A stretch of DNA of 39,211 nucleotides from a virus (Duplodnaviria; Heunggongvirae; Uroviricota; Caudoviricetes): IMG/VR virus record IMGVR_UViG_2778261139_000004, positions 1 to 39,211 of that record, one strand, 5' to 3'. Each line of letters begins with the position of its first letter. Position 1 is the first letter of the stretch. The position numbers and the translations under genes are program-made. Positions 3,948 to 38,277 of this stretch are shown piece after piece. The notes under the pieces were generated by a model that saw nothing but the letters and a program-made list of their open reading frames with translations, was not told the DNA's origin and made no database searches.

Positions 3948-4169
3948 ATGGCTCCACATATTTCAATCACCTTAGCTGTCCCATCTGTTTCTATTGAGAA
4001 ATACAGTGAACTGACTGGGTTATCTATCGATACTATCAATGACATGCTGGCTGATGGACGCCTTATTCGCCATCGTCTCCGTAAAGATAAAAAGCGAGAA
4101 AAGGTAATGATCAATATCGCAGCAATGACCGTTGATGCGCTCTCTGAATGCAATTTGAGTATTAACTAG
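3948..4169 (+). CDS. Apl/Cox-like excisionase and transcriptional regulator (small HTH protein)
   Basis: First gene of the rightward early operon, divergent from cI. Small basic protein with an HTH-like segment (IEKYSELTGLSIDTINDMLADGRL). Start chosen at the internal ATG 3948; the ORF track extends to 3876. Confidence 0.55.
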   Translation: MAPHISITLAVPSVSIEKYSELTGLSIDTINDMLADGRLIRHRLRKDKKREKVMINIAAMTVDALSECNLSIN

Positions 4170-5752: not shown

Positions 5753-6606
5753 GCACCATCCTGAAATGGGCGGGTAATAAAACCGCCATTATGTCCGAAC
5801 TGAAAAAACATCTTCCTGCTGGCCCGCGACTGGTTGAACCTTTCGCGGGTTCTTGTGCTGTGATGATGGCGACGGATTACCCCAGCTATCTGGTTGCGGA
5901 TATTAATCCTGATTTAATCAACCTCTATAAAAAGGTTGCTGCTGATTGTGAGGCGTTTATATCTCGCGCCAGAGTTTTATTTGAGGAAGCAAACAGGGAA
6001 GTGGCTTATTACAACATAAGGCAGGAGTTTAATTACTCCACTGAAATTACTGATTTCATGAAAGCAGTATATTTCCTGTATCTCAATCGTCACGGTTACC
6101 GTGGGTTATGTCGCTATAACAAAAGCGGGTATTTCAACATTCCCTACGGTAATTATAAAAATCCGTATTTCCCTGAAAAAGAAATTCGCGCTTTTGCAGA
6201 AAAAGCCCAGCGAGCAACGTTTATCTGCGCCAGCTTTGATGAAACGCTGGCGATGTTGAAGGCGGGGGATGTGGTGTATTGCGATCCGCCTTATGACGGT
6301 ACGTTTTCCGGCTATCACGCTGACGGCTTTACTGAAGATGACCAGTATCACCTGGCATCCGTTCTTGAACATCGGTCATCAGAAGGACATCCGGTCATTG
6401 TTTCTAACAGTGACACATCCCTGATCCGTTCGCTGTATCGCAATTTTACTCACCACTATATCAAGGTAAAACGCAGCATCGGCGTAGCAGCTGGTGAGAG
6501 TAAATCAGCAACAGAAATCATTGCTGTTTCCGGGCCGCGCTGCTGGGTGGGATTTGATTATTCGCGTGGCGTGGATAGTTCTGCCGTGTACGGAGTACGT
6601 GCATGA
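5749..6606 (+). CDS. dam: DNA adenine methyltransferase (Dam-like, N6-adenine)
   Basis: N-terminal LKWAGNK and FAGS motifs and the catalytic DPPY motif (VYCDPPYDG). ATGA start/stop overlap with the upstream gene. Confidence 0.85.
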
Positions 6607-9017
6607 GCCATGCCGATATGAGCAACTGCTGCGGCTTTAAAGAGGCTGCCGCATCGTTCTCATGGAACAGCCCGAAAAAGGCCATTAACCCTTATCTGGA
6701 CCCGGCGGAAGTTGCGCCGGTTTCTGCGCTTTCAAACCTGATCACTCTGTACGCTGCCGATAACGAGCAGGAACAACTGCGCCGCGAGGCACTGAGTGAT
6801 CAGGTCTGGGAGCGTTATTTCTTTAATGAATCCCGTGATCCTGTCCAACGCGAAATAGAACAGGATAAGCTCATTAGCCGGGCAAAGTTGGCGCATGAGC
6901 AGCAGCGTTTTAACCCGGACATGGTCATTCTGGCAGACGTCAGCGTCCAGCCCTCCCATATCAGCAAGCCGCTGATGCAACGTATTGAATACTTCAGCAG
7001 CCTGGGCAGGCCAAAGGCTTATTCCCGCTATTTACGTGAGACGATTAAGCCATGTCTGGAACGACTGGAGCATGTACGCGACAGCCAGCTATCTGCATCT
7101 TTTCGTTTTATGGCAAGCCATGTAGGGCTGGACGGCCTGCTGATTCTGCCTGAAATGAGTCAGGATCAGGTGAAACGCCTGTCTACCCTTGTCGCTGCGC
7201 ATATGAGCATGTGCCTTGATGCAGCTTGTGGTGATTTGTATGCCACCGATGACGTTAAGCCAGAAGAAATCCGCAAGACATGGGAAAAGGTGGCAGCGGA
7301 AACCCTGCGTCTGGATGTCATCCCGCCTGCGTTTGAGCAACTCCGTCGGAAAAGAAACCGCCGTAAACCCGTGCCCTATGAACTCATTCCGGGTTCGCTG
7401 GCGCGTATGTTGTGCGCCGACTGGTGGTACCGGAAATTATGGAAAATGCGTTGCGAATGGCGGGAAGAGCAGTTGCGTGCTGTCTGCCTGGTCAGCAAAA
7501 AAGCATCTCCCTATGTCAGCTATGAAGCCGTGATGCATAAACGTGAGCAGCGCCGCAAGTCACTGGAGTTTTTCCGTTCTCATGAACTGGTGAACGAAGA
7601 GGGCGACACGCTGGATATGGAAGACGTGGTAAACGCCAGCAGCAGCAACCCGGCGCACCGCCGCAATGAGATGATGGCCTGTGTTAAAGGTCTGGAGCTT
7701 ATCGCGGAAATGCGCGGTGACTGCGCCGTTTTCTACACCATTACCTGTCCGTCACGTTTCCATTCCACGCTCAATAACGGCAGACCAAACCCAACCTGGA
7801 CAAATGCGACGGTAAGACAAAGCAGCGATTATCTGGTCGGCATGTTTGCTGCATTTCGTAAGGCGATGCACAAAGCCGGGTTGCGCTGGTATGGCGTGCG
7901 GGTGGCTGAGCCGCATCATGACGGTACAGTTCACTGGCACCTGTTGTGTTTCATGCGCAAAAAAGACCGCCGCGCCATTACTGCATTGTTGCGTAAGTTT
8001 GCCATCCGTGAAGACCGCGAGGAACTGGGTAATAACACTGGTCCACGCTTTAAATCTGAGCTGATAAACCCGCGCAAAGGAACGCCGACAAGCTACATCG
8101 CGAAATACATCAGTAAGAACATTGACGGGCGTGGTCTGGCTGGCGAGATCAGCAAGGAAACGGGTAAATCCCTGCGTGATAACGCTGAATACGTTAATGC
8201 CTGGGCGTCTCTGCATCGTGTTCAGCAATTCCGCTTCTTTGGCATTCCGGGGCGTCAGGCTTACCGTGAACTGCGATTGCTGGCTGGTCAGGCGGCAAGG
8301 CAACAGGGCGACAAAAAAGCAGGTGCGCCGGTACTGGATAACCCGCGCCTTGATGCCATCCTGGCTGCTGCTGATGCTGGTTGTTTTGCCACCTACATCA
8401 TGAAGCAGGGCGGCGTACTGGTTCCCCGCAAATATCACCTCATCAGAACCGCTTATGAAATTAACGAAGAGCCGACCGCCTATGGCGATCACGGCATTCG
8501 TATTTATGGCATCTGGTCACCCATTGCAGAGGGCAAGATCTGCACTCATGCCGTGAAGTGGAAAATGGTTCGTAAGGCCGTTGACGTTCAGGAGGCGGCA
8601 GCCGACCAGGGCGCTTGCGCCCCTTGGACTCGTGGCAATAACTGTCCCCTTGCTGAAAATTTGAACCAGCAGGAGAAAGATAAATCAGCTGATGGGGACA
8701 CCAGAACGGACATTACCCGCATGGATGACAAGGAGTTGCACGATTATCTGCACAGTATGAGCAAAAAAGAGCGCCGGGAACTGGCTGCAAGGTTACGCCT
8801 GGTTAAGCCGAAACGGCGTAAAGACTACAAACAGCGAATTACAGATCATCAGCGACAGCAGCTCGTCTATGAACTGAAGTCCAGAGGATTTGATGGCAGC
8901 GAGAAAGAGGTCGATTTACTCCTTCGCGGTGGCAGTATTCCGTCAGGAGCAGGCCTGCGTATCTTCTATCGGAACCAGCGTTTGCAGGAAGATGATAAGT
9001 GGCGGGATCTGTATTAA
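6603..9017 (+). CDS. A: Replication initiation endonuclease (P2 gpA family, rolling-circle initiator)
   Basis: 804-aa ORF containing the conserved YIAKYISK active-site tyrosine region; ATGA overlap with dam. Confidence 0.85.
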
Positions 9018-9109
9018 TTATGCGGGTTAACAATTCGTGCTCTTAATAATACCAGGTATATCAGGCTGATGATCGTAAAAAAACGTTTTACATCAGTAAG
9101 ATTATTATA

Positions 9110-9129
9110 TACTGTAAATATAAACAGTG
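9110..9129. promoter_or_regulatory. LexA (SOS) box overlapping a putative -10 element
   Basis: TACTGTAAATATAAACAGTG has CTGT-N8-ACAG and matches the LexA consensus TACTGTATATATATACAGTA at 17 of 20 positions. A TATACT -10 candidate at 9108-9113 overlaps it. Confidence 0.6.
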
Positions 9130-9168
9130 GTTATGCATACAGTATTGCTTGGTGTCATAGGAGGAAAG

Positions 9169-9357
9169 ATGCAGGACTATTTTTTGGAGTCTTTGAAGCT
9201 CCAGCGCATTGATTTTTTTCTTAAGCTTGTAGCGGCTAGTGAGTGTAGTGATGAAGAGAAGGGGCTGGCTTTGCAGTGGGTTTCTGAACTAACAGATGAA
9301 CTCATGGCAAAAATCAGAACCCACGAATACAACCGCTCAATGGATGTCATCAGCTGA
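9169..9357 (+). CDS. Small hypothetical protein, possible N-terminal part of a Tum-like SOS antirepressor
   Basis: 62-aa ORF with AGGAGGA upstream of ATG 9169; directly downstream of the LexA box and upstream of the dinI-like gene. Confidence 0.45.
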   Translation: MQDYFLESLKLQRIDFFLKLVAASECSDEEKGLALQWVSELTDELMAKIRTHEYNRSMDVIS

Positions 9358-9367
9358 GGTGACTTTT

Positions 9368-9601
9368 ATGCGCATTGAAATAATGATCGATAAAGAGCAG
9401 AAGATTAGCCAGTCTACCCTGGACGCCCTTGAATCCGAGCTTTACCGCAATCTGCGCCCCCTGTATCCCAAAACGGTAATTCGTATCCGTAAAGGTAGCT
9501 CTAACGGTGTGGAACTGACTGGACTGCAACTGGACGAAGAAAGGAAGCAAGTGATGAAAATTATGCAGAAGGTGTGGGAAGACGACAGCTGGCTGCATTA
9601 A
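9368..9601 (+). CDS. dinI: DinI-like protein
   Basis: 77 aa, MRIEIMIDKEQ ... VWEDDSWLH; resembles the DinI family in length and pattern (MRIEV ... start, acidic C-terminus with W). Confidence 0.7.
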   Translation: MRIEIMIDKEQKISQSTLDALESELYRNLRPLYPKTVIRIRKGSSNGVELTGLQLDEERKQVMKIMQKVWEDDSWLH

Positions 9602-9736
9602 GAAACGTTGCTGGCGTCTGAACTTGTTTCTGGCGTCAGCAAGGTTTAACAACGAGCCCTTGTGAGGCGTTAGCTCTGTAGTGCATGTCTATGCCGCATG
9701 AGATCGCATGATCGTTTGAGGATCGTTTTTGCTAAG

Positions 9737-9760
9737 GCCCGCCAGAACTGGCGGGCTTTT
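9737..9760 (+). terminator. Rho-independent terminator ending the early operon
   Basis: GCCCGCCAG-aac-CTGGCGGGC stem-loop followed by TTTT. Confidence 0.6.
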
Positions 9761-9807
9761 GCGTAGATCATGCAGGTGCATGAAAACCACTACATAAAGC
9801 GGGCAGG

Positions 9808-9826
9808 CGTGGCGGGGATACGAGCG
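9808..9826. other. cos-like motif resembling the P2/186 cohesive-end core
   Basis: GGCGTGGCGGGGATACGAG; the first 13 nt match my recollection of the 186 cohesive end (GGCGTGGCGGGGAAAGCAT). Recollection only, not verified. Confidence 0.3.
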
Positions 9827-9832
9827 CGCGCC

Positions 9833-9861
9833 TTGCCTTATATCTATTTGTTCATTAAAAT
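9833..9861 (+). promoter_or_regulatory. Putative sigma70 promoter for the retron ncRNA/RT operon
   Basis: TTGCCT (9833-9838), 17-bp spacer, TAAAAT (9856-9861). Confidence 0.3.
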
Positions 9862-10075
9862 CATTATGCTCTTTAGTGTAGGAACATTGGTTCCAGCCGG
9901 GTGATTAGCCAGGCTTAAATTTATTGTCCGGTTTAGGGTTGCGAAAGACACAGATTTCTCCTTCGCATCCCTGCCCGGGGCAGATATGCGAAGGAGAAAT
10001 CTGTGTCTTTCGCTGTCTTTAGTGAAGAGTCAAAGCGCTATGTAAAGTTGCATAGCGCTTTGGTTTTAAGAGGGG
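9862..10075 (+). ncRNA. Candidate retron msr-msd non-coding RNA region; boundaries approximate
   Basis: Structured non-coding DNA directly upstream of a retron-type RT: palindrome GGAAC-attg-GTTCC (9881-9894), perfect 28-bp inverted repeat (9941-10013) and a perfect 12-bp hairpin (10031-10062). a1/a2 repeats not confidently identified. Confidence 0.4.
9941..10013. repeat. Perfect 28-bp inverted repeat with a 17-nt partly palindromic spacer (candidate msd stem-loop)
   Basis: GCGAAAGACACAGATTTCTCCTTCGCAT (9941-9968) and its exact reverse complement (9986-10013); spacer CCCTGCCCGGGGCAGAT. Confidence 0.9.
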
Positions 10076-10079
10076 TTAT

Positions 10080-11015
10080 ATGCAACTAACTTCTAAAATT
10101 ATCAGTAAGTTTAATTATAATAGATTAGCTTTCCAATTACTTTTAAATGAGGCCCCCAAAAAATATAAAGTTTATTATATTCCTAAACGTGGCGCAGGTT
10201 TTCGGGTGATAGCTCAGCCGACAAAGGAACTAAAAAACGTACAGAGATTTATAGTATCTTTGCTACAGCCAAAGCTGCCTGTTCATCATAAGGCAATGGC
10301 ATATGAATATAAAAAAAGTATTAAAGATAATGCATTGTTGCATAAAGATAATAATTATATTCTTAAAATGGATTTTCAGAACTTCTTTAACAAAATTAAA
10401 CCTGATATATTTTTCTCGAAACTTGAGAACACAGGGCTGAAATTGGATTCATTTGATGAGAATACCCTACGTAATTTGCTTTTTTGGCGTCCGGGAAAAA
10501 AGAGAAGTACAACGTTGATATTAAGTGTAGGGGCGCCAAGCTCACCATTTATTAGTAATTTTGTTATGTATGACTTTGACAAGAGTCTTGATGATTGGTG
10601 CCGTAACAATGGTATCACTTATTCAAGGTATGCAGATGATATAACTTTTTCAACTAATATTAAGGATATATTGTGCAGGGTTCCTAAGGTGGTAAAAAAA
10701 ATGTTGTCGCTCCATGTTCCCGGTCTATCAATCAATGAATCTAAAACAATTTTTACATCGATGGCTCATAATCGGCACGTGACTGGTGTAACACTTACAC
10801 CTCAGGGCAATTTATCAATTGGTCGCGATCGTAAAAGGATGCTGTTTGCAAAGATTCATAAATATTCTTTGGGACTCTTATCTTCCGAAGAAATAAATAA
10901 AACCAAAGGGATGATTGCGTTTGCAAATTATTTGGAGGGTGATTTTTTATTAAGGTTACAAAAAAAATATGGTTGTGAGTTAATAACTAAGTTCCTGATG
11001 GAAGGAAACAAATAA
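10080..11015 (+). CDS. Retron-type reverse transcriptase
   Basis: 311 aa with the RT active-site motif YADD (SRYADDITFS), an upstream GAPSSP motif, and the retron-typical VTG motif (NRHVTGV) downstream. AT-rich cargo. Confidence 0.85.
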   Translation: MQLTSKIISKFNYNRLAFQLLLNEAPKKYKVYYIPKRGAGFRVIAQPTKELKNVQRFIVSLLQPKLPVHHKAMAYEYKKSIKDNALLHKDNNYILKMDFQNFFNKIKPDIFFSKLENTGLKLDSFDENTLRNLLFWRPGKKRSTTLILSVGAPSSPFISNFVMYDFDKSLDDWCRNNGITYSRYADDITFSTNIKDILCRVPKVVKKMLSLHVPGLSINESKTIFTSMAHNRHVTGVTLTPQGNLSIGRDRKRMLFAKIHKYSLGLLSSEEINKTKGMIAFANYLEGDFLLRLQKKYGCELITKFLMEGNK

Positions 11016-12649
11016 TGATAAATAAAATGAATTTAGAGACTTGCTATGTTGATTTTTTAGAGTTGGAATCACATGTGATAAACGAGGATTATTTGAAGGA
11101 GTCTGTTGAGCTTCAAAAGCTAATATCTACTTTAAATGAGAGTAAGTTTCATTTAAATAAAATAGGTATACATGATTTTAAACGGATAAGAGAACTACAG
11201 ATTTCTTTAGAAGATGATTTGACTGTTTTTGTCGGGGATAACGGATTCGGTAAAAGCACTATTTTGGATGCAATAGCAATTGTTTTGAGTTGGTTGAGAT
11301 CAAATATTGAAAAGGAGAGTAAGCCTGGTACTTATATTAAAAGCCATGAAGTTAATAACTCTGTTGATGTTGAGTATGCATCAATTGATGCAAATATAAA
11401 ACTCAAGGACTTTAATACCAGTATTTTGATTACTAAAGCGAAAGAGGGGGCATATTATTCTAGAAATAATGAATTGTTGGAGGTAAAAAAACTTGCAAGT
11501 ATTTATAGACTTGTGAATAAATATGTTGATAATGCAAGCTTGCCTTTGATGGCATATTATTCTATTGCGCGTTCTTATATAGGCGGCGGGGTTGATAGGA
11601 AAAGAAAAAATGCTAAAACTAAAACTGTATGGTCAAAATTCGATGTGTATGATGAAATCGAGTTTGACAGAAATGATTTTACCGATTTTTTTCAATGGCT
11701 TGTATTTCTTCATAACAGAGCTTCACAAGAGAAATTGAGTGAGTCACAAACGACAATCAATGCGTTATTTTCAGATATTCAGAGTTTGAAAGCAACATTA
11801 ACTCAACTATCTGCGATTGATAATATTGATTCAACAGTTATAAAAGGTTTAGAGCTTTCGCTTAAAGAAAAATTGAACTACATGAAATCTCTGCAATCAG
11901 GAGAACATAAGTTTAATAATGCAGTATCACTTTATGATAGTGTTATAAATACCATTCTAAAGTTCTTGCCTGAATTTCAGTGGATTAAGCTTGTTTATGG
12001 TGATGATGATTATAAGATTATCCTTAAAAAAGGAGAGGTTGAATTAGATATTCAACAGTTGTCTCAAGGTGAGAAAACTATATTTACTTTAGTTGGTGAT
12101 TTGGCTCGACGTTTAATTTTACTTAATCCAAATTTATCTAATCCTCTATTGGGATATGGGATTGTTTTAATTGATGAAATTGATTTGCATTTGCATCCGC
12201 AATGGCAACAGACAATTATTGAGCGTTTGACATCTACATTCCCAAATGTTCAATTTGTAATTACTACCCATAGCCCACAGGTTTTATCCACTGTTAGCTC
12301 TCGTTCAGTGCGTATTCTACAGGAAGTGGAAGTAGATGGTGTTAATGATTTGATAGTGTCTCACCCCGACTATCAAATAAAAGGTGTTAGTAATCAGGAT
12401 GCACTTTTATATGGAATGAGAACTGATCCTATACCCTCTACTAAAGAAAATGGTTGGCTTGAAGAATATAAAAAATTGGTTGAGCTTAATCGTTATAGCA
12501 GTGACGAGGCTCTTTTGTTAAGAGAAAAAGTTATTAAACATTTCGGATTAGACCATCCTTTAGTTCAAGAGTGTGATGATCTTATATCTGTTTTGGAGTT
12601 CAAAAATAAGATAAATCAGCACTTTTCTGGAAGTAAGGATGTAAAATGA
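11015..12649 (+). CDS. PtuA-like ABC/AAA-type ATPase (Septu-type effector partner of the RT)
   Basis: Walker A GDNGFGKST, Walker B VLIDEIDLHLHP, TTHSP motif. Start overlaps the RT stop. Confidence 0.8.
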   Translation: MINKMNLETCYVDFLELESHVINEDYLKESVELQKLISTLNESKFHLNKIGIHDFKRIRELQISLEDDLTVFVGDNGFGKSTILDAIAIVLSWLRSNIEKESKPGTYIKSHEVNNSVDVEYASIDANIKLKDFNTSILITKAKEGAYYSRNNELLEVKKLASIYRLVNKYVDNASLPLMAYYSIARSYIGGGVDRKRKNAKTKTVWSKFDVYDEIEFDRNDFTDFFQWLVFLHNRASQEKLSESQTTINALFSDIQSLKATLTQLSAIDNIDSTVIKGLELSLKEKLNYMKSLQSGEHKFNNAVSLYDSVINTILKFLPEFQWIKLVYGDDDYKIILKKGEVELDIQQLSQGEKTIFTLVGDLARRLILLNPNLSNPLLGYGIVLIDEIDLHLHPQWQQTIIERLTSTFPNVQFVITTHSPQVLSTVSSRSVRILQEVEVDGVNDLIVSHPDYQIKGVSNQDALLYGMRTDPIPSTKENGWLEEYKKLVELNRYSSDEALLLREKVIKHFGLDHPLVQECDDLISVLEFKNKINQHFSGSKDVK

Positions 12650-13329
12650 AATATCTATCTAGGCAAATGCCAGGGCCTTCCGTTCTTAATAAATTTGACT
12701 ATAGGAGGGATGATTGGAATTCCCTATCATCAAATGATAAAAAAGAAATATGGGAAGAAATAATAAAAATGCAAGGTAAATTATGTGCTTATTGCGAGAA
12801 AAAAATAGAGCATCATAAAAGTGGTGGCAAAAATAAAGTTGAGAGGCATATTGAGCATTTTTACAGGAAAAGTTATTACAAAAATTTAACTTTCGAGTGG
12901 TCTAATTTGTTTGGCTCATGTGGTGAGCCGCAAAGGTGTGGGTTTTATAAGGATAAGCAAAAATATAACGATGATGATTTAATTAAAGCTGATAGACAAA
13001 ATCCAGATGTTTTTTTCCATTTTTTGGAAAATGGTGATGTTCATATTAGAGAAGGCTTGAATGAGAAAGAACACAAAATGGCAGAGGTTACGTTAAGAGT
13101 ATTTAACTTAAACCCGTCCTCAGGAGGAGTCAAGGCGGAAAGAAGACGTGCAATAGAATTAAGCATGACATTAATAAAGGAACTGGTCGGATGTGCATCT
13201 CAGCTTATTGAATCAGGATGTGAAATTGAAGATGTTAGATCTATGGTCTTTGATGAGTTTAAAAAGAATGTAAAAGATAGATGCTTTACCACTGCGATAA
13301 AGCATGTTTTTGAGAATAGAATGCCTTAA
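12646..13329 (+). CDS. PtuB-like HNH-type nuclease
   Basis: CAYCEKKIEHH ... ERHIEHF ... SCGEPQRCG cysteine/histidine pattern consistent with an HNH zinc-finger nuclease. Overlaps the ATPase stop by 4 nt. Confidence 0.65.
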   Translation: MKYLSRQMPGPSVLNKFDYRRDDWNSLSSNDKKEIWEEIIKMQGKLCAYCEKKIEHHKSGGKNKVERHIEHFYRKSYYKNLTFEWSNLFGSCGEPQRCGFYKDKQKYNDDDLIKADRQNPDVFFHFLENGDVHIREGLNEKEHKMAEVTLRVFNLNPSSGGVKAERRRAIELSMTLIKELVGCASQLIESGCEIEDVRSMVFDEFKKNVKDRCFTTAIKHVFENRMP

Positions 13330-13352
13330 AGGTTAGAGGGATGTATATATAA

Positions 13353-14384
13353 TTAATCTATATTATATTCTGAGAAATTGATAATATGCATCCCTATCCA
13401 CTGATTAAATTCATGGATTTTTTTTTGTAGAGGTACTAATTCATTTGTCACAAAAACCTTACTAGCTTTCTCCACATCCCCAAACCCCCCAACATTATTC
13501 GGCATAATCCCCATCATTTGCGGCGGCACACGGTGTGCCGCCATCATGTCGTCCCGGCTCACGTTCTTGATATTCAGAAATTCATCCTTCGCTGCAACTT
13601 CTGACAACGGGATGATCTGAAGCCCGTCCTTTTTGCCGTTAGGCGAGTACATAAACAAGTTACGGAAGTTGCCCGGTCCTTTGGCGCTTTTCATCGCGTT
13701 GCGGAGGTTGTTCACATCCTCCTGGTTCTGCGCGGCGTCAGTCATATACATGATGAAGCCTGCATGACTGCCGTTAATGTAATACTTGCGGCGGAACAGC
13801 GTGGCGGACTCGTTGAGCAGGGCTGACGGAATGGCAGAAAGATAACCGGGCAGGCCGTAGATCTCCTGGTTGATGTCCGGTTCCATCAGATGAAAAATGC
13901 TGCCTTTCGCGAACTGATACGGCTGGGTTGTCATACCGTATTGCACAAACCAGTAGGTATCCAGGTCTAACCCGCGTCGGGTGTATTTTGCCAGCGCAGG
14001 CTCAAGGGCGATAACTTCACCGAATCGGTTCGTGCGTTTCTCCAGGTAGGCGTTACCAAATACCAGATAGTCCAGCACAAAACGCGAAAAAGCCTGCTGG
14101 CTGAGAAGCGGGTGAGGGATGTAGGTGCTGGTCAGAATGTTGCATTTCACTGCAATTGGTGAACTGTGATGCACGGCAGCGCGGAAGGTGCGCGCCAGTC
14201 CGTCAAAGCTGACGGGAGGCTCATACCAGCGATCTGTCTGTACGCATTCCACATAGTCCAGCAGTTCGCGGCGGTCAAGTACTGGAATGGGATCACCGAA
14301 GCTGAATGCTTCGGCTGAAGCTTGGCTTTTATGCTGGATCTGGTTCGTCGCCGCAGCGCGTTTTTTTTTACTCTTTCCCATCAA
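13353..14384 (-). CDS. Q: Portal protein (P2 gpQ-like)
   Basis: 343 aa, syntenic with P2 Q immediately before the terminase ATPase gene; overlaps the P stop by 4 nt. Its 3' end is AT-rich. Confidence 0.85.
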   Translation of the reverse strand: MMGKSKKKRAAATNQIQHKSQASAEAFSFGDPIPVLDRRELLDYVECVQTDRWYEPPVSFDGLARTFRAAVHHSSPIAVKCNILTSTYIPHPLLSQQAFSRFVLDYLVFGNAYLEKRTNRFGEVIALEPALAKYTRRGLDLDTYWFVQYGMTTQPYQFAKGSIFHLMEPDINQEIYGLPGYLSAIPSALLNESATLFRRKYYINGSHAGFIMYMTDAAQNQEDVNNLRNAMKSAKGPGNFRNLFMYSPNGKKDGLQIIPLSEVAAKDEFLNIKNVSRDDMMAAHRVPPQMMGIMPNNVGGFGDVEKASKVFVTNELVPLQKKIHEFNQWIGMHIINFSEYNID

Positions 14385-16147
14385 AAAATCTCCACAATAT
14401 TGCTGGTATTGGCGGACTCGCCCTGCAGCGGTTCGTTAAACAGTGCGTGCATTGTTGCCCAGGCCAGATCGGCATGGCTGGCTTCTTCACTGCGGCTTGC
14501 TTCATAGGTCGGGCGGTTGCCGCTGGCGGTGGTTGCGCGACGGATTGCCATAAATGACTGCGCTATGTCGGTGTGTCCGGCGTCAAACTCCAGACGACGG
14601 TGACTGATAATGTCGTAGGCCTTGAGTACCAGGGCGTTTTTAACGTTGGGGTTGTAGACAAACTCCCGGACGGCTGGAAAAAACGCTTTCACGTTTTCAT
14701 AAACCCCGTGACCGACACCCGTCGAGTCGATGCCGATATAGGTCACGTTGTACTGTTCGGTCAGTTTTTTGATGGCGTCAGCCTGGGCGCGGAAGTCCAT
14801 CCCGCGCCACTGGTGACGCTCAAGAATGCGGAACTTACCGCCCGGCACGGCTGGCGGTGCCACCACCACGCATCCGGCGCTGTCGCCGTTTTGCGTACCT
14901 TTTGCCGGGTCATAACCGATCCACACCTCGCGCCAGCCAAACGGGCGCAGGGCCAGTGCATGAAAGTCGGTCCAGACTTCCCAGCTGTCCACCATGCACG
15001 CCTGCAGCTCGCTGAGCGGGAACACGGACGCGAGATCGTCCACGAACTCGCACATCAGCAGGTTCTGGTATTCGTCCGGGCTGTACTCCATGCGCAACTG
15101 GTCAAGGTCGAACAGGTTACAGCCGCCGCGCACCGCATCTTCCACGGTGACTATCTGGCGGTATTGCCCGTCTGCGCACAGCAGGCCGGGGGCCAGATTG
15201 CTATGGGACAGGTCGATGTCCACCTTGTCGGCTTTGTTGCGTCCACGGTTGAACAGCGCACCGGACCAGAACGGATAAGCACTGTGGGTCAGGCTGGATG
15301 GCGTGGAAAAATAGGTTTGTCGCCATTTTTTGTGAATAGCCATACCGGAAGCCACTTTGCGCAGCTCCTGGAATTTCGGTATCCAGAAATATTCATCCAG
15401 ATACAGGTTGCCGTGGTAACTCTGGGCCGTGCGGGCATTGGTGCCGAGGAAGTAAAGAGTGGCCCCGTTGGGAAGCACCATCGGATCGCCTTTCAGCTCC
15501 ACCTCCACTTCTTTGGCGAAGTCGATGATGTACTGTTTAAAGACGTGGGCCTGTGCCTTACTGGCGGAAAGGAAAATCTGGTTACGTCCGGTTAGCAGGG
15601 CGTCAATCAGGGCTTCACGGGCAAAATAGAAGGTCGCGCCGATCTGGCGTGACTTCAGCAGGTTGCGGATGCGGTTGGTTTTTCCGGCTTCCCACCAGTG
15701 GCGCTGGTAGTTGAACATGGAGGAATGGAAGATTTCTTCCAGCTTCTCAATCTGTTCATCGGTGAAAACATTCTTTTCCGGCTGACGGCGCGGGCCTTTG
15801 TTGCGGTTGGCGACGTTAGGGTTTAAGTCGGCTTCGTTGCCGCCATTGTTAAACTTGCCGATCCGCGCGTGGCGCTCCGACTGGCGCGCCAGCAGGTCAA
15901 TTTCTTTAAAGTCTTTCCCTTCTTTGTGCTCCTTCATGATGAGCTGGCAGTAGCGTGCGGCGGTGGTGAGCTGCATCTGATCCAGCGGCCCATAGTAACC
16001 CCACTTGTCGCGTTTTTTCCAGCTGTGAACGGTTGCAACTTTCTCGCCCAGCATTTCAGCAATGCGGGCTACGCGGTATCCCTGAAAGTACAGCAGCATG
16101 GCCTGCCGACGGGGATCGAGATCTGCGGATGTCAGTGTGGTGTTCAT
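14381..16147 (-). CDS. P: Terminase large (ATPase) subunit (P2 gpP-like)
   Basis: 588-aa ORF divergent from the O-N-M-L operon, in the P2 position. Confidence 0.85.
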   Translation of the reverse strand: MNTTLTSADLDPRRQAMLLYFQGYRVARIAEMLGEKVATVHSWKKRDKWGYYGPLDQMQLTTAARYCQLIMKEHKEGKDFKEIDLLARQSERHARIGKFNNGGNEADLNPNVANRNKGPRRQPEKNVFTDEQIEKLEEIFHSSMFNYQRHWWEAGKTNRIRNLLKSRQIGATFYFAREALIDALLTGRNQIFLSASKAQAHVFKQYIIDFAKEVEVELKGDPMVLPNGATLYFLGTNARTAQSYHGNLYLDEYFWIPKFQELRKVASGMAIHKKWRQTYFSTPSSLTHSAYPFWSGALFNRGRNKADKVDIDLSHSNLAPGLLCADGQYRQIVTVEDAVRGGCNLFDLDQLRMEYSPDEYQNLLMCEFVDDLASVFPLSELQACMVDSWEVWTDFHALALRPFGWREVWIGYDPAKGTQNGDSAGCVVVAPPAVPGGKFRILERHQWRGMDFRAQADAIKKLTEQYNVTYIGIDSTGVGHGVYENVKAFFPAVREFVYNPNVKNALVLKAYDIISHRRLEFDAGHTDIAQSFMAIRRATTASGNRPTYEASRSEEASHADLAWATMHALFNEPLQGESANTSNIVEIF

Positions 16148-20887: not shown

Positions 20888-21281
20888 AGCAGTGCCTTAT
20901 GTCCGCAATAACCCGGACAAACTGCATCTGTTTGTGGATAACGGTTCGCTGGTTGCCACGGGGGCCAGCTCCATGTCATGGGAGTACCGCTATACCCTGA
21001 ACGTGGTGATTGAGGATTTCAGCGGCGACCAGAATCTGCTGATGGCCCCGGTTTTGCTGTGGCTGCGGGATAATCAGCCTGATGCCATCAATAACCCGGC
21101 GTTACGGGAAAAGTTATTCACCTTTGAGGTGGATATTCTGCGCAATGATGTCTGTGATATCAGCCTTAACCTGCAACTGACGGAGCGTGTGCTGGTCAGC
21201 ACTGATGGCAGTGTGTCGAGTGTTGAAGCTGTAGCGGAACCCGATGAACCTGAAGAAATGTGGACGGTGAAACGTGGCTGA
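20850..21281 (+). CDS. R: Tail completion protein R (P2 gpR-like)
   Basis: GTG start at 20850 preceded by AGGAG; the N-terminus (NKPQSLRHALNKAV ... FVDNGS) resembles P2 R as recalled. Confidence 0.75.
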   Translation: MNKPQSLRHALNKAVPYVRNNPDKLHLFVDNGSLVATGASSMSWEYRYTLNVVIEDFSGDQNLLMAPVLLWLRDNQPDAINNPALREKLFTFEVDILRNDVCDISLNLQLTERVLVSTDGSVSSVEAVAEPDEPEEMWTVKRG

Positions 21282-21720
21282 ATTGCAGAAGGTGGACGAC
21301 TGGTTGAGTGCCTTGCTGGCGAATCTGGAGCCAGCCGCAAGAAGCCGTATGATGCGCCAGCTGGCGCAAGAACTGCGCCGGACACAGCAGCAGAACATCA
21401 GGATGCAGCGCAATCCAGATGGCAGTAGTTATGAGCCGCGCAGAGTAACAGCACGCAGCAAAAAGGGGCGCATCAAACGTCAGATGTTTGCAAAGCTGCG
21501 CACCAAAAAATACCTGAAAACTGCCGCCAGCGCCGATTCTGCCAGCGTGCAGTTTGAAGGTAAGGTGCAGCGCATTGCCCGCGTTCATCACTACGGCCTG
21601 CGTGATCGTGTTAGTCGTAAGGGGCCGGAGGTACGTTATGCTGAGCGGCGGCTATTGGGTTTCAACGATGAAACTACTCTTCAAATTAAAACAATTTTAT
21701 CTAGTTACTTAATGGGGTGA
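21274..21720 (+). CDS. S: Tail completion protein S (P2 gpS-like)
   Basis: 148-aa ORF with a GTG start overlapping the R stop; the last codons are AT-rich. Confidence 0.75.
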   Translation: MAELQKVDDWLSALLANLEPAARSRMMRQLAQELRRTQQQNIRMQRNPDGSSYEPRRVTARSKKGRIKRQMFAKLRTKKYLKTAASADSASVQFEGKVQRIARVHHYGLRDRVSRKGPEVRYAERRLLGFNDETTLQIKTILSSYLMG

Positions 21721-21806
21721 AGATTCACGCTTTTGCTAGCTTCTACAAGGTTTTATGCTTCTAAACACTGTATGTTTAATTTGACATATAACTATTTGTA
21801 CAAGCG

Positions 21807-23036
21807 GTGAGTATGAAAAAGCAAGATGAGTCCCCCAAAGCTGATAAATCAAATTTAGATAAAAGTGAGTCTGAACCACCAAAAGCGAACTCTATGGCAG
21901 ATGCCATGGCCATAGCGGCAGAGGTTGCTACGACAGCAACGTCAGTTCAAACATCAACCTTTGCAATTATCGCGGATTTTCTACGTTCAGGTGGTATAGA
22001 AAAACTAACTTCAAATGCTATCAAAAATTTAGAAATAAAAGTAAAGGGCCATTCTCAAGCGACAAGAACTACGGTATTGAGGAACCTGAAGACCTCTTTC
22101 AAAGAGGAGAATTTAGTTCTTGTTTTAGGTGCTGGCATTTCTTTAGATTACAGCATACCAACATGGAGTGAATTATTAAAGCGGCTATTGGCAAGAGCTT
22201 TGGATGATAAAAATGAAAATCAGAAAATGGTATCGGTTTTGTTTAATGAGGTTTTCGGTCCGAACGCACTCATAGCAGCCAGATATCTAAAACTACACTT
22301 TGATGGTATTAATACTCCCTTGGAAAAAGAAATTCAGCATGTTTTGTATGAATATTATCAGGAGGAAGAAAGCAGTACATTGAAAGCAATCAAGAAATTG
22401 TGCATATCGGCAGGCAAGTCACCAGGTCTAGATTCCGTTATTACATATAACTATGATGATATTTTGGAACAGACATTAACTAGAGCTGATGTTGGTATAA
22501 AGTATAAGGTGATTTCAAAGACGGGGCAGCATGCAAAAAATGATGAACTGCCGATCTACCATGTGCATGGCTATCTCCCATTGCAGGGGAAAGTTGAACT
22601 CGATGACACGCTAGTCCTTTCTGATGAAAGCTATCATAGGCAATACATGGATTTATACCATTGGAGCAATATGGTTCAGTTGAATAAATTCAAAGATGGA
22701 AATTGCCTGTTTGTTGGTCATTCCTTTACAGATCCAAACCTCAGAAGGTTGATGGATACAGCCAAAAAACTTAGAGGGAATGATTCTAAACCTCATTATT
22801 TAATTAAGTGTAGACATTCGAAAGAAGATGTGATTGCTAATATTCAAAGAATTGTTAGTGACTCAAGAAATGGATTTGATAATAAACTGAATATTAATGA
22901 GGATGCAATCGCGACCTCTCTTTTACAGACAGTGCATACTTTTGAAGAAATCGATGCTAATTCATTTGGCGTGAATGTTATTTGGATCGACTCTTACGAT
23001 GAGATTGCACCAATACTTAATGATCTAACACAATAA
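21807..23036 (+). CDS. SIR2-like (SIR2_2 / DUF4020-type) domain protein, putative NAD-depleting defence effector (cargo)
   Basis: 409 aa with the SIR2-like motifs VLVLGAGIS ... PTWSELL, ITYNYDDILEQ, IYHVHGYL, LVLSDESY and LFVGHSFTDPNL. AT-rich, inserted between S and V. Confidence 0.75.
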   Translation: MSMKKQDESPKADKSNLDKSESEPPKANSMADAMAIAAEVATTATSVQTSTFAIIADFLRSGGIEKLTSNAIKNLEIKVKGHSQATRTTVLRNLKTSFKEENLVLVLGAGISLDYSIPTWSELLKRLLARALDDKNENQKMVSVLFNEVFGPNALIAARYLKLHFDGINTPLEKEIQHVLYEYYQEEESSTLKAIKKLCISAGKSPGLDSVITYNYDDILEQTLTRADVGIKYKVISKTGQHAKNDELPIYHVHGYLPLQGKVELDDTLVLSDESYHRQYMDLYHWSNMVQLNKFKDGNCLFVGHSFTDPNLRRLMDTAKKLRGNDSKPHYLIKCRHSKEDVIANIQRIVSDSRNGFDNKLNINEDAIATSLLQTVHTFEEIDANSFGVNVIWIDSYDEIAPILNDLTQ

Positions 23037-23047
23037 TCTCCCTAAGT

Positions 23048-23065
23048 TGTGCCAGAAATGGCACA
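23048..23065. promoter_or_regulatory. TGT-N12-ACA dyad, candidate Ogr-dependent late promoter element for the V operon
   Basis: TGTGCCAGAAATGGCACA just upstream of V; could alternatively act as a terminator hairpin for the SIR2 gene. Confidence 0.35.
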
Positions 23066-23113
23066 GCTTTAAATCCTATCCTAATGACGGCAGCATTTGG
23101 CAATCTAATTGCC

Positions 23114-36591: not shown

Positions 36592-38277
36592 TTATCCTAA
36601 TCCTGGCCATACCATGACGATGATTGTCCCTGCCAGCGTCAGCAGGACGTTGGCGATTGCGTAGGTGCCCGCGTAGCCCAGCGCAGGGATGTTACTGCGA
36701 GCTGTATCACTGATGATCTCCATTGCCGGCGCGCAGGTGCGTGCGCCCATCATTGCGCCGAACAACAGTGCGCGGTTCATTCGCAATACATAAGCACCGA
36801 ACAAGAAACAGATAACCACGGGCACAAGACTGACAATTAATCCGGCAATCAACATCTGACCGCCAATCGCGCCCAGGCCGTTATTAATACCGCTACCGGC
36901 GCTCAGACCAACGCCTGCCATAAACACCATCAAGCCGAACTCTTTCACCATGCTTAATGCACCTTGCGGAATGTAACCGAAGGTCGGGTGGTTAGCACGC
37001 ATAAAGCCCAGCATAATTCCGGCGAATAACAACCCGGCAGCGTTCCCCATGCCGAAACTGAATGTGCTGAACTGGAAGGTGATCATCCCGATCATCAGCC
37101 CAATAACAAAGAAGGCGCAAAATGCCAGCAGGTCAGTGACCTGGCTGTGAATCGAGATAAAGCCGATGCGATCGGCGATGGTTTTTACGCGACGGGCATC
37201 ACCGCTGACTTGTAAAACGTCACCTTTGTTAAGCACGACGTTGTCATCTATCGGCATCTCAATCTGGCTACGAATGACGCGGTTAAGGAAGCAACCGTGA
37301 TCGGTCAACTTCAGTTGTGCGAGACGTTTACCTACAGCGTTATGGTTTTTAACGACCACTTCTTCAGTGACGATACGCATGTCGAGAAGGTCACGATCGA
37401 AAACTTCTTTACCGTTACGGAAGCTGGGATCGAGTCGGGCATGGGCGTCGGGATAGCCTACCAACGCTATTTCATCGCCCATTTGTAGCACGGCATCACC
37501 GTCTGGATTTGCCAGAATCCCGTTACGTCGAATACGTTCAATGTAGCAGCCGGTTTGTCGATAAATACCCAGTTCACGCAGATTTTTGCCGTCGGTCCAG
37601 GCCACCAGCTCCGGGCCGACGCGATAGGCGCGGATCACCGGTAAATAAACCTTACGGTTGGCATCAGTGTCCAGGCCACGTTCGCGGGCGATTTGCTGGG
37701 CGCTGGTCTGTAAGTCCTGATGCTGCAATTTCGGCAAGTAACGCGCACCAACAATCAAACTCACCAGACCGATTAAATAGGTTAAGGCATACCCGAGGCT
37801 CAGATTATCCAGTGCCAGTGAGAGCTGCCTGCTTTCCATGCCGGAATGACGCAGTGTATCGCCAGCACCGACCAGAACCGGTGTCGACGTCATAGAGCCT
37901 GCTAACATACCGGCCGTCAGGCCAATATCCCAGCCAAACAGCTTACCTAACCCTAAGGCGATCACCAGCGCACTGCCAACCATCACCAGTGCTAACATTA
38001 GGTAATTTTTCCCATCGCGAAAAAAAATGGAAAAAAAGTTCGGTCCGGCTTCGACCCCGACGCAGAAAATAAACAGCATAAAGCCAAGATTAAGCGCATC
38101 GGTGTTAATGCTGAAATGTTGTTGGCCTAATAACAGCGATACGACTAAAACGCCAATGGAATTACCCAGTTGGATCGAACCAAGTCGTAACTTTCCGAGA
38201 CATAGCCCAAGCGCGAGGACCACAAATAATAACAGAATGTAATTCCCATTTAACAATTCGGCGACGTTTATATTCAC
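36592..38277 (-). CDS. ybjL: Putative transport protein YbjL (host)
   Basis: 561-aa multi-TM protein; recognised as the E. coli ybjL product by sequence recall and by synteny with ybjM and grxA. Confidence 0.8.

Follow-up and report, generated by a model that had tools for sequence, protein, structure and literature searches.

The question raised by this locus is why the last several dozen codons of a phage portal gene, Q, should resemble in composition the AT-rich retron cassette beside them rather than the rest of the gene, a resemblance that a first-pass annotation had taken to suggest that the cassette was exchanged by recombination inside the 3' end of Q and carried a foreign Q tail with it. 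The window analysed, a stretch of 39,211 nucleotides identical to positions 2796116-2835326 of E. coli SC475 (NZ_LR778148.1), holds an E. coli P2/186-like prophage that is complete from int to ogr and adjoins ybjL. Within it, the replication endonuclease gene A (6603-9017) is followed by a small ORF and DinI (9169-9601) and then by cos (9806-9831, plus strand), which consists of the 19-nt cohesive-end sequence GGCGTGGCGGGGATACGAG and a conserved CGCGCGC and was assigned by its match to P2 and 186 cos. The cargo (9832-13329) lies between gpA and gpQ and adjoins cos, which matches the layout of the P2-like defence hotspot known from this position. Beyond the cargo, portal gene Q (13353-14381, minus strand, 342 residues) and terminase gene P (14381-16147) form one operon that is convergent to the retron. 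The product of Q was recognised as a P2/PBSX-type portal protein gpQ from its match to TIGR01540 (362.6 bits against a cutoff of 166, residues 52-332 of 342) and from a Pfam Phage_portal match spanning residues 95-327; a search of its sequence against solved structures gave no match.

All cassette features are on the plus strand. The putative retron non-coding RNA (9868-10071) comprises an msr (9868-9932; Rfam RF00170, 45.9 bits, E = 4e-6, below the gathering score of 52) and an msd-containing match to STnc400 (9934-10071; RF02058, 73 bits, E = 3e-13, below the gathering score of 80), both in the position expected. Next come a reverse transcriptase gene of the St85/Ec78 family (10080-11015; NF038233 retron_St85_RT, 321.3 bits against a cutoff of 235, with an additional match to Pfam RVT_1 and an agreeing RefSeq annotation), a gene for a PtuA-like ATPase effector (11015-12649; Pfam AAA_15 and AAA_21, and NF041760 over a full-length alignment, whose 471.8 bits fall just short of its curated cutoff, 500), which RefSeq labels only as 'AAA family ATPase', and ptuB, the gene for the PtuB HNH endonuclease effector (12646-13329; NF041761, 160.7 bits against a cutoff of 150). 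On these matches the cassette is taken to be retron Ec78 (Retron-Eco7, type I-A, PtuA/PtuB effectors), an already known cargo, with what appears to be the same gene set in the same order (msr/msd, reverse transcriptase, ATPase, HNH). The cargo is not new, and its junction with Q is the subject here. Two more modules of the Ec78 family were noted at the same site in E. coli N10 (L109) and AREA_497 (L110). Their reverse transcriptase, PtuA and PtuB proteins are only about 46-57% identical in amino acid sequence to those of the window, while their msr/msd DNA, at 80-87% identity, is far more conserved than the protein genes.

The stop codon of ptuB ends at 13329 and the TAA of Q occupies 13353-13355, leaving between the convergent genes a spacer of 23 bp (13330-13352), as the first-pass annotation had stated. 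Its claim that the 3' composition of Q is that of the cassette was also borne out by quantitative analysis of GC content and codon usage. The maximum-likelihood change point in the GC content of Q was at 13465 (2-log-likelihood support 13446-13479), with a GC content of 0.26 in the last ~112 nt on the 3' side of this position and of 0.53 on the 5' side. The change point was significant: the observed log-likelihood ratio was 15.3, whereas over 1000 shuffles of the codons of Q the ratio averaged 2.9 and never rose above 11.9. In codon blocks, GC3 was 0.20-0.33 over the last 45 codons and 0.47-0.87 elsewhere. Third-position GC in the tail (9/36, 0.25) differed from that in the Q body (182/280, 0.65; Fisher p = 6.5e-6) and was indistinguishable from that of ptuB (66/228, 0.29; p = 0.70); comparison with the reverse transcriptase gene gave p = 0.57 (95/312). 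At codon positions 1, 2 and 3, GC was 0.39, 0.17 and 0.25 in the tail and 0.41, 0.31 and 0.29 in ptuB. The AT-rich stretch amounts to about 37 codons (13353-13465, residues ~307-342 and the stop codon), and the conserved, GC-normal body occupies 13466-14381. Codon usage is often relaxed at gene ends, and this is the one point in favour of regarding the tail as an ordinary fluctuation of composition. Against it, none of the 1000 shuffles reached the observed log-likelihood ratio, and the GC drop was absent from P2, 186 and nine cargo-free relatives; these results refute the fluctuation explanation, to which we attach next to no probability.

Two features of the Q sequence were noted in passing. 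A run of nine A/T (13419-13427) in the tail encodes the two lysines of LQKKI, within CAA AAA AAA ATC, and an IMG/VR copy (L101) has T8 there, which would frameshift the last ~24 portal residues; the site may be prone to slippage, or the T8 may be a sequencing error. The first ~26 codons of Q (14310-14381) are hypervariable too (entropy 1.69, nucleotide identity 0.75-0.81), with no shift in GC. The N-terminus of P2 gpQ is reportedly removed in maturation.

Comparison with relatives that lack cargo indicated what the cassette displaced. P2 and 186, in which the interval from cos to the portal gene is free of cargo, have portal tails of normal GC content (0.51-0.54), no change point and a retained tQ/tW terminator. 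Nine cargo-free relatives likewise have a GC-normal tail with a terminator after it; in cargo-free relatives of the same Q lineage, this terminator is strong and GC-rich, and cos lies 143-244 nt past the Q stop codon. Homology of these sites to the window restarts exactly at 9831. Because the cargo-free relatives have a GC-normal tail and a terminator, and because homology returns only at 9831, the module is a replacement of the ~140-bp spacer between cos and Q, of the tQ/tW terminator and of the last ~37 codons of Q, and not a simple insertion.

Unrelated cargo occupies the same position in closely related prophages, with eight types in E. coli and more in other genera. Eight E. coli prophages with backbones ~95% identical, each with one cargo (retron Ec78, a pair of hypotheticals, retron Ec67, AAA+S8 peptidase, TIR, PIN, DprA-like or KAP+AAA), were compared in the alignment of Q by which the first-pass annotation had proposed to locate the breakpoint. 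Each had its own AT-rich Q tail (GC 0.23-0.31), the tails were mutually divergent, and their GC change points were 95-123 nt from the 3' end of Q. Mean pairwise identity among the eight was 0.93-0.95 over the ~45 nt of Q before 13470, stepped to 0.75 at 13469-13440, sank to 0.5 at the stop codon and was random past it; in the Q body it was mostly 0.87-0.99, with 0.75-0.81 in the 5' ~70 nt. Divergence sets in directly after the codons for GDVEKA. The alignment thus placed the breakpoint at ~13470, with different tails beside other cargos, and the 3' end of Q was not common to relatives lacking the cassette. Two prophages with identical adjacent cargo (L004 and L012) had identical Q tails. The link between tail and cargo is not absolute over long times, the AAA+S8 cargo being accompanied by an AT-rich tail in E. 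coli (L006) and by a GC-normal one in Silvania (L021). Co-divergence of the tails with cassette family was also considered and gave no such signal: among three Ec78-family cassettes (~55% amino acid identity), the tails, which are saturated, were no more alike than tails beside unrelated cassettes.

Substitution patterns bear on both the coding status and the age of the tails. Among the eight, dS was at least 1.4, with saturation in 11 of the 28 pairs, and dN was 0.29, giving a dN/dS of ~0.24, as against a dS of 0.27 and a dN of 0.0035 in the Q body. Since this ratio is low among tail variants and TIGR01540 aligns through residue 332, the AT-rich tail is to be read as genuinely coding, and the ratio marks the tails as being under purifying selection. 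From the contrast between saturated dS in the tails and 0.27 in the body it follows that the tails, dated in this way, are much older lineages than the backbone that carries them. F310, N313, E314, P317, Q319, N326, W328, F336 and Y339 are invariant in the tails. In an alignment of 64 portal proteins, column entropy rose from 0.24 over residues 27-306 to 1.16 over residues 307-342. With 64 close homologues as input, AlphaFold gave a poor model (mean pLDDT 38) that was usable in its C-terminal region alone, where a helix was predicted for residues 301-329, with block-mean pLDDT of 60-86 over residues 301-340. In this model, the swapped segment is most of the predicted C-terminal helix plus a short extension, and an exchange confined to the terminal helix plausibly explains why hybrid portals would work. 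That the hybrid portal is functional in this prophage we infer from its intact annotation and from known phages with AT-rich tails such as Fels-2.

The variable module thus extends from 9832, 7 bp past the cos cohesive end, to about codon 306 of Q (13465). Its left edge is sharp: the 26 nt of cos (GGCGTGGCGGGGATACGAGCGCGCGC) were kept in Fels-2 and in the examined E. coli loci with other cargo, L014 and Klebsiella phage 4LV2017 each having one substitution, and from 9832 on the sequence differs for every cargo. Cos was located by eye and with a relaxed pattern, an exact or 3-mismatch search for the P2 cos sequence having given no match. Some relatives carry extra cargo to the left of cos, in the position of old/tin in P2 (L004, 3198-3875; L012, 2880-3937; L014, 827-2947, with cos at 4049, 4055 and 3394, respectively). 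Because of this additional cargo across cos, the gpA-gpQ hotspot is in fact two sub-sites split by cos, and the cargo of the window is on the Q side only.

At the right edge, no intrinsic terminator was found in the 13330-13352 spacer, and the tQ/tW terminator of P2, 186 and the cargo-free relatives is absent. Scans of both strands for terminators of the convergent retron and P-Q operons in the window found nothing convincing; the sole terminator-like element, an 11-bp AT-rich hairpin (13281-13305) in the 3' end of ptuB, was flagged on the minus strand. Strong spacer hairpins were present in the diverged Ec78-family modules L109 and L110 and beside several other cargos. These observations bear on the proposal that the 3' end of Q is AT-rich through regulatory selection, as the 3' UTR or terminator of the cargo operon, as a tract for H-NS silencing, or as an antisense overlap coupling cargo and late genes. 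The loss of tQ/tW with only 23 bp left between the genes speaks for such a role, as do a T9 run that follows a weak hairpin within the tail on the cargo-sense strand (13395-13427) and the strong cargo-sense hairpins, with T-runs abutting the Q stop codon, in several sister modules. However, the window has no convincing terminator on either strand, the sister-module hairpin is in the spacer rather than in the tail, and selection for AT would leave both the saturated, module-specific divergence and the transfer junctions described next unexplained. We consider regulatory selection distinctly unlikely as the source of the composition.

Copies of the Ec78 cassette on different backbones provided direct evidence of movement. 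A 28-nt tail-specific sequence was found solely beside the Ec78 cassette, with 4 occurrences among 5426 complete E. coli genomes, 4 on contigs of IMG/VR and 2 on metagenome contigs, and no Ec78-type Q tail without the cassette was found among the 5426 complete E. coli genomes and the IMG/VR and metagenome contigs. Conversely, all copies of the cassette had this tail and, with 6-12 differences in 3.6 kb, were 99.7-99.9% identical with the tail included. Cassette and tail occurred on at least three backbones, with at least three right and at least two left junctions, all in flanking homology. In L102, identity was perfect over 9664-13484 and only ~90% from 13485 on, that is, from the composition boundary. 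For L101, the right junction was narrowed to the interval 13419-13580. The prophage of E. coli 98208 (L009) has a block near-identical to the window (8650-14073, 8 differences), whose right junction is at ~14073 and whose left one is at ~8600-9020, in gene A or the downstream spacer and not at cos; the flanks of the block are 3-4% divergent, and the block bears the marks, in its sequence, of one recent recombinational transfer of the module. L099, L100 and E. coli FORC_082 (L003) share the right-hand backbone and have a left junction bracketed at 9664-9866, an interval that includes cos. Left junctions were bracketed only, at 9664-9866 or 9794-10462, and these brackets are consistent with a left junction exactly at cos.

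Multiple junctions that all fall in flanking homology are what homologous recombination produces, and we regard it as the likely route. The occurrence of a near-identical cassette and tail on different Q bodies supports the suggestion of the first-pass annotation that the cassette was exchanged by recombination. Its further suggestion of a crossover inside the 3' end of Q fits L102, whose junction is at the composition boundary, and is too narrow for L009, whose junction at ~14073 indicates that a crossover may fall anywhere in the conserved body of Q. Similarly, the Q tail is shown to be foreign only in that it belongs to the module and not to the backbone; the searches brought up no phage of a low-GC host that could have donated it. 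Several copies of the Ec78 prophage (L003, L102 and L108) are degraded, large deletions joining Q or P to distant tail genes, and in FORC_082 a TIR-domain gene stands where capsid genes would be. In these degraded copies, the retron module and the Q tail are still intact.

Some of the same observations would suit a cassette that integrated site-specifically where Q terminates and supplied the gene with a new 3' end, an architecture that is similar in that a homologous substitute 3' end is contiguous with foreign DNA. Yet no remnant of a displaced native Q tail, terminator or spacer was found in the window, where only the cos side of the cargo-free site is matched; the cassette has no integrase; and the junctions with other backbones are scattered in flanking homology, as in homologous recombination. 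Site-specific insertion is accordingly a highly improbable account of the locus.

We prefer, and hold to be quite probable, the reading that a swappable defence module ends on its right with the AT-rich 3' part of Q, which hitchhikes with the cargo. The module forms the extreme left end of the virion chromosome in 186-like prophages, from 7 bp past the cos cohesive end, and would pass between related phage backbones by homologous recombination in conserved flanks, with the right crossover in the Q body, which provides the homology, and the left junction at or near cos or further left in DinI or gene A. Because the module lies 7 bp from the packaged left end, and the cohesive end is common to all these phages, cutting and re-joining at cos could serve as the second 'crossover', and a single exchange in Q or further right would then be enough. 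Tails of different modules, being only 50-75% identical, would be too diverged to recombine often, so that crossovers inside them would be rare and each tail would stay linked to its cargo. A tail kept linked in this way would diverge to synonymous saturation and come to have an AT composition in common with the cargo, its AT-richness presumably mirroring the module's own evolutionary regime. The phage would tolerate the swap in that the segment is a homologous C-terminal helix with a short extension, held under purifying selection. Chi-driven RecBCD exchange from the cos end was also considered and was rejected, the only Chi in the window being at 37602, far from Q and P.

The generality of the pattern was gauged in 80 loci from different species, 60 of which (9 without and 51 with cargo) entered the GC comparison. 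Mean GC of the last 105 nt of Q was 0.54 where cargo was lacking and 0.40 where it was present (Mann-Whitney p = 6e-5), whereas GC of the Q body was equal in the two groups, at 0.56. Tail GC tracked cargo GC, taken over the downstream kilobase (rho = 0.73, p = 1e-9). Change points across species ranged from 17 to 167 nt from the end of Q, with a cluster at 97-128 nt (13/37). The Q tail was AT-rich in Fels-2 and Klebsiella phage 4LV2017 as well, and in one Klebsiella phage with adjacent TIR cargo only ~24 nt of Q were AT-rich.

As to how the tails became AT-rich, one source compatible with the hitchhiking reading is import, in which modules and their tails came from P2-like phages of low-GC hosts with a wholly AT-rich Q, and diverged Q genes recombined at the last strongly conserved motif, MMGIMPNNVGGFGDVEKA, to give a hybrid Q. 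The tail of the window is homologous to Q tails and AT-shifted at all three codon positions, its amino acids are shifted (K, I, N and F replacing R, V, D and L), synonymous divergence between tails is saturated, and the change-point cluster of 13/37 at 97-128 nt is just past the conserved motif. On the other hand, no AT-rich donor Q was found by tblastn among phage genomes, where the closest phage tails were at most 70% identical, and the Q bodies of all 80 related loci had a GC content of at least 0.50. AT-rich intrusions in Enterobacterales were limited to ~170 nt or less, though a foreign donor could also cross over at upstream motifs. In addition, tail identity falls gradually toward the stop codon and partial segments are held in common, which suggests recombination in one local pool. 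A search of the 45-aa tail against a large protein collection returned 11 short fragments only and was uninformative on origin. On balance, we regard import as rather doubtful.

Decay in place is a somewhat better prospect, and we would treat it as a real possibility falling short of an even one. Balancing selection on defence cargo would have tied ancient native ends of Q to module lineages that are rare and persist for long. Shut off from homogenising recombination and efficient selection, these ends would under AT-biased mutation have drifted toward the composition of the cargo. Such decay would account for divergence that rises abruptly and then more gradually in the direction of the cargo, for change points that are continuous from 17 to 167 nt across species, and for the correlation of tail GC with cargo GC. 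The same pattern at a second hotspot (described below), where the length of the gpS-like gene is exactly kept, and the low dS of the Q body, expected of a frequently recombining or swept backbone, point in the same direction. The argument presupposes, though, both the mutation bias and the ages, and decay alone would leave unexplained the sharpness of the step and its position at the same motif in eight E. coli modules.

A second hotspot in the window (21661-23097) repeats this architecture, which speaks for the preferred reading: a gpS-like virion morphogenesis gene (21274-21720) is followed by a SIR2-family cargo gene (21813-23036). The gpS-like gene ends in ~18 AT-rich codons, with a GC content of 0.28 in the last 60 nt as against 0.57 in the rest, and its tail differs from the GC-normal tail (0.52) of the same length in the prophage of E. 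coli 98208, which is without SIR2. Homology to the latter prophage ends at ~21671 and resumes at ~23098. A third AT-rich block (1135-2860, GC 0.23-0.40) contains two hypothetical genes between the integrase and the CI repressor, a known cargo position in P2-like prophages. It might be proposed that a replacement end of the abutting core gene, as found at Q beside many cargos and at the gpS-like gene beside SIR2, is a general rule of P2-like defence hotspots, possibly functional and not passive, a proposal that we consider unlikely. One possibility under it is a portal C-terminal helix matched to the cargo, for example to escape immunity that senses the portal, or to prevent self-triggering upon induction. 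Alternatively, the AT-rich end of the gene may serve as a regulatory interface, by convergent transcription or silencing, between lysogenic defence and lytic late genes.

These results give base-level limits, 7 bp past cos and portal codon ~306, to a much-studied hotspot, and direct junction evidence for module movement via recombination in flanking homology, the mechanism being left open in the relevant passages of the two main papers on the hotspot. Pipelines that cut cargo 'between gpA and gpQ' overlook the module-specific part of gpQ, and the last ~40 codons should be left out of Peduoviridae portal-gene phylogenies. The Q tail could also be a cheap marker for the cargo lineage of a prophage. 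In P2/186 vectors, engineered payloads can probably replace the segment from 7 bp past cos to the C-terminal helix of Q. More broadly, an essential structural gene can have a terminal part that evolves with the accessory genome.

With respect to known systems, the P2-like hotspot between gpA and gpQ, beside cos, has been described as holding variable anti-phage cargo (Rousset et al. 2022, PMC9122126; Moura de Sousa et al. 2026, PMC13586616). Locus, kind of cargo and rapid swaps between near-identical backbones are the same here. As to the route, Rousset et al. (2022) offered as speculation that exchange proceeds through the cos end and one homologous crossover, while the large survey of Moura de Sousa et al. 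(2026) reported rapid swapping and, in the text concerned, left the mechanism open. Both papers bound the hotspot by whole genes, from gpA to gpQ, whereas its edges are given here at base level; the passages of PMC9122126 and PMC13586616 retrieved by term search make no mention of the last ~37 gpQ codons as variable or of nucleotide-level junctions. Retrons Ec67 and Ec86 reportedly take the place of the stretch from cos to the portal operon's end in a 186-related prophage (Dodd and Egan 1996, Virology 219:115), and Ec78 has the same placement here. The title of that paper sets the right boundary at a transcription terminator, whereas in the window the terminator is gone and replacement reaches ~112 nt into the portal gene. 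In an Ec67-carrying prophage among those compared here (L005), the terminator is also lost and replacement also extends into the portal gene, as in the window.

Mosaicism in phages places junctions inside genes or at domain boundaries. The present junction is alike in that identity steps from ~95% to below 75% within coding sequence, close to where a terminal structural element begins, and is kept because the hybrid protein apparently works; it differs in that it recurs at one place for many unrelated cargos, is coupled to a shift in composition and involves an essential portal gene flanking a defence hotspot. Some integrative elements insert in the 3' end of a gene (a tRNA gene or another) and supply a substitute end, and here, too, foreign DNA is contiguous with a homologous replacement 3' end. 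Unlike those elements, the module lacks att repeats and a dedicated recombinase, the original gene end is not retained beside it, and its junctions are scattered. What was known before, then, is the hotspot, the diversity of its cargo, the retron and the position, from cos to the portal operon, that retrons take in 186-like prophages; the new detail is the intragenic boundary, which is a refinement of that picture.
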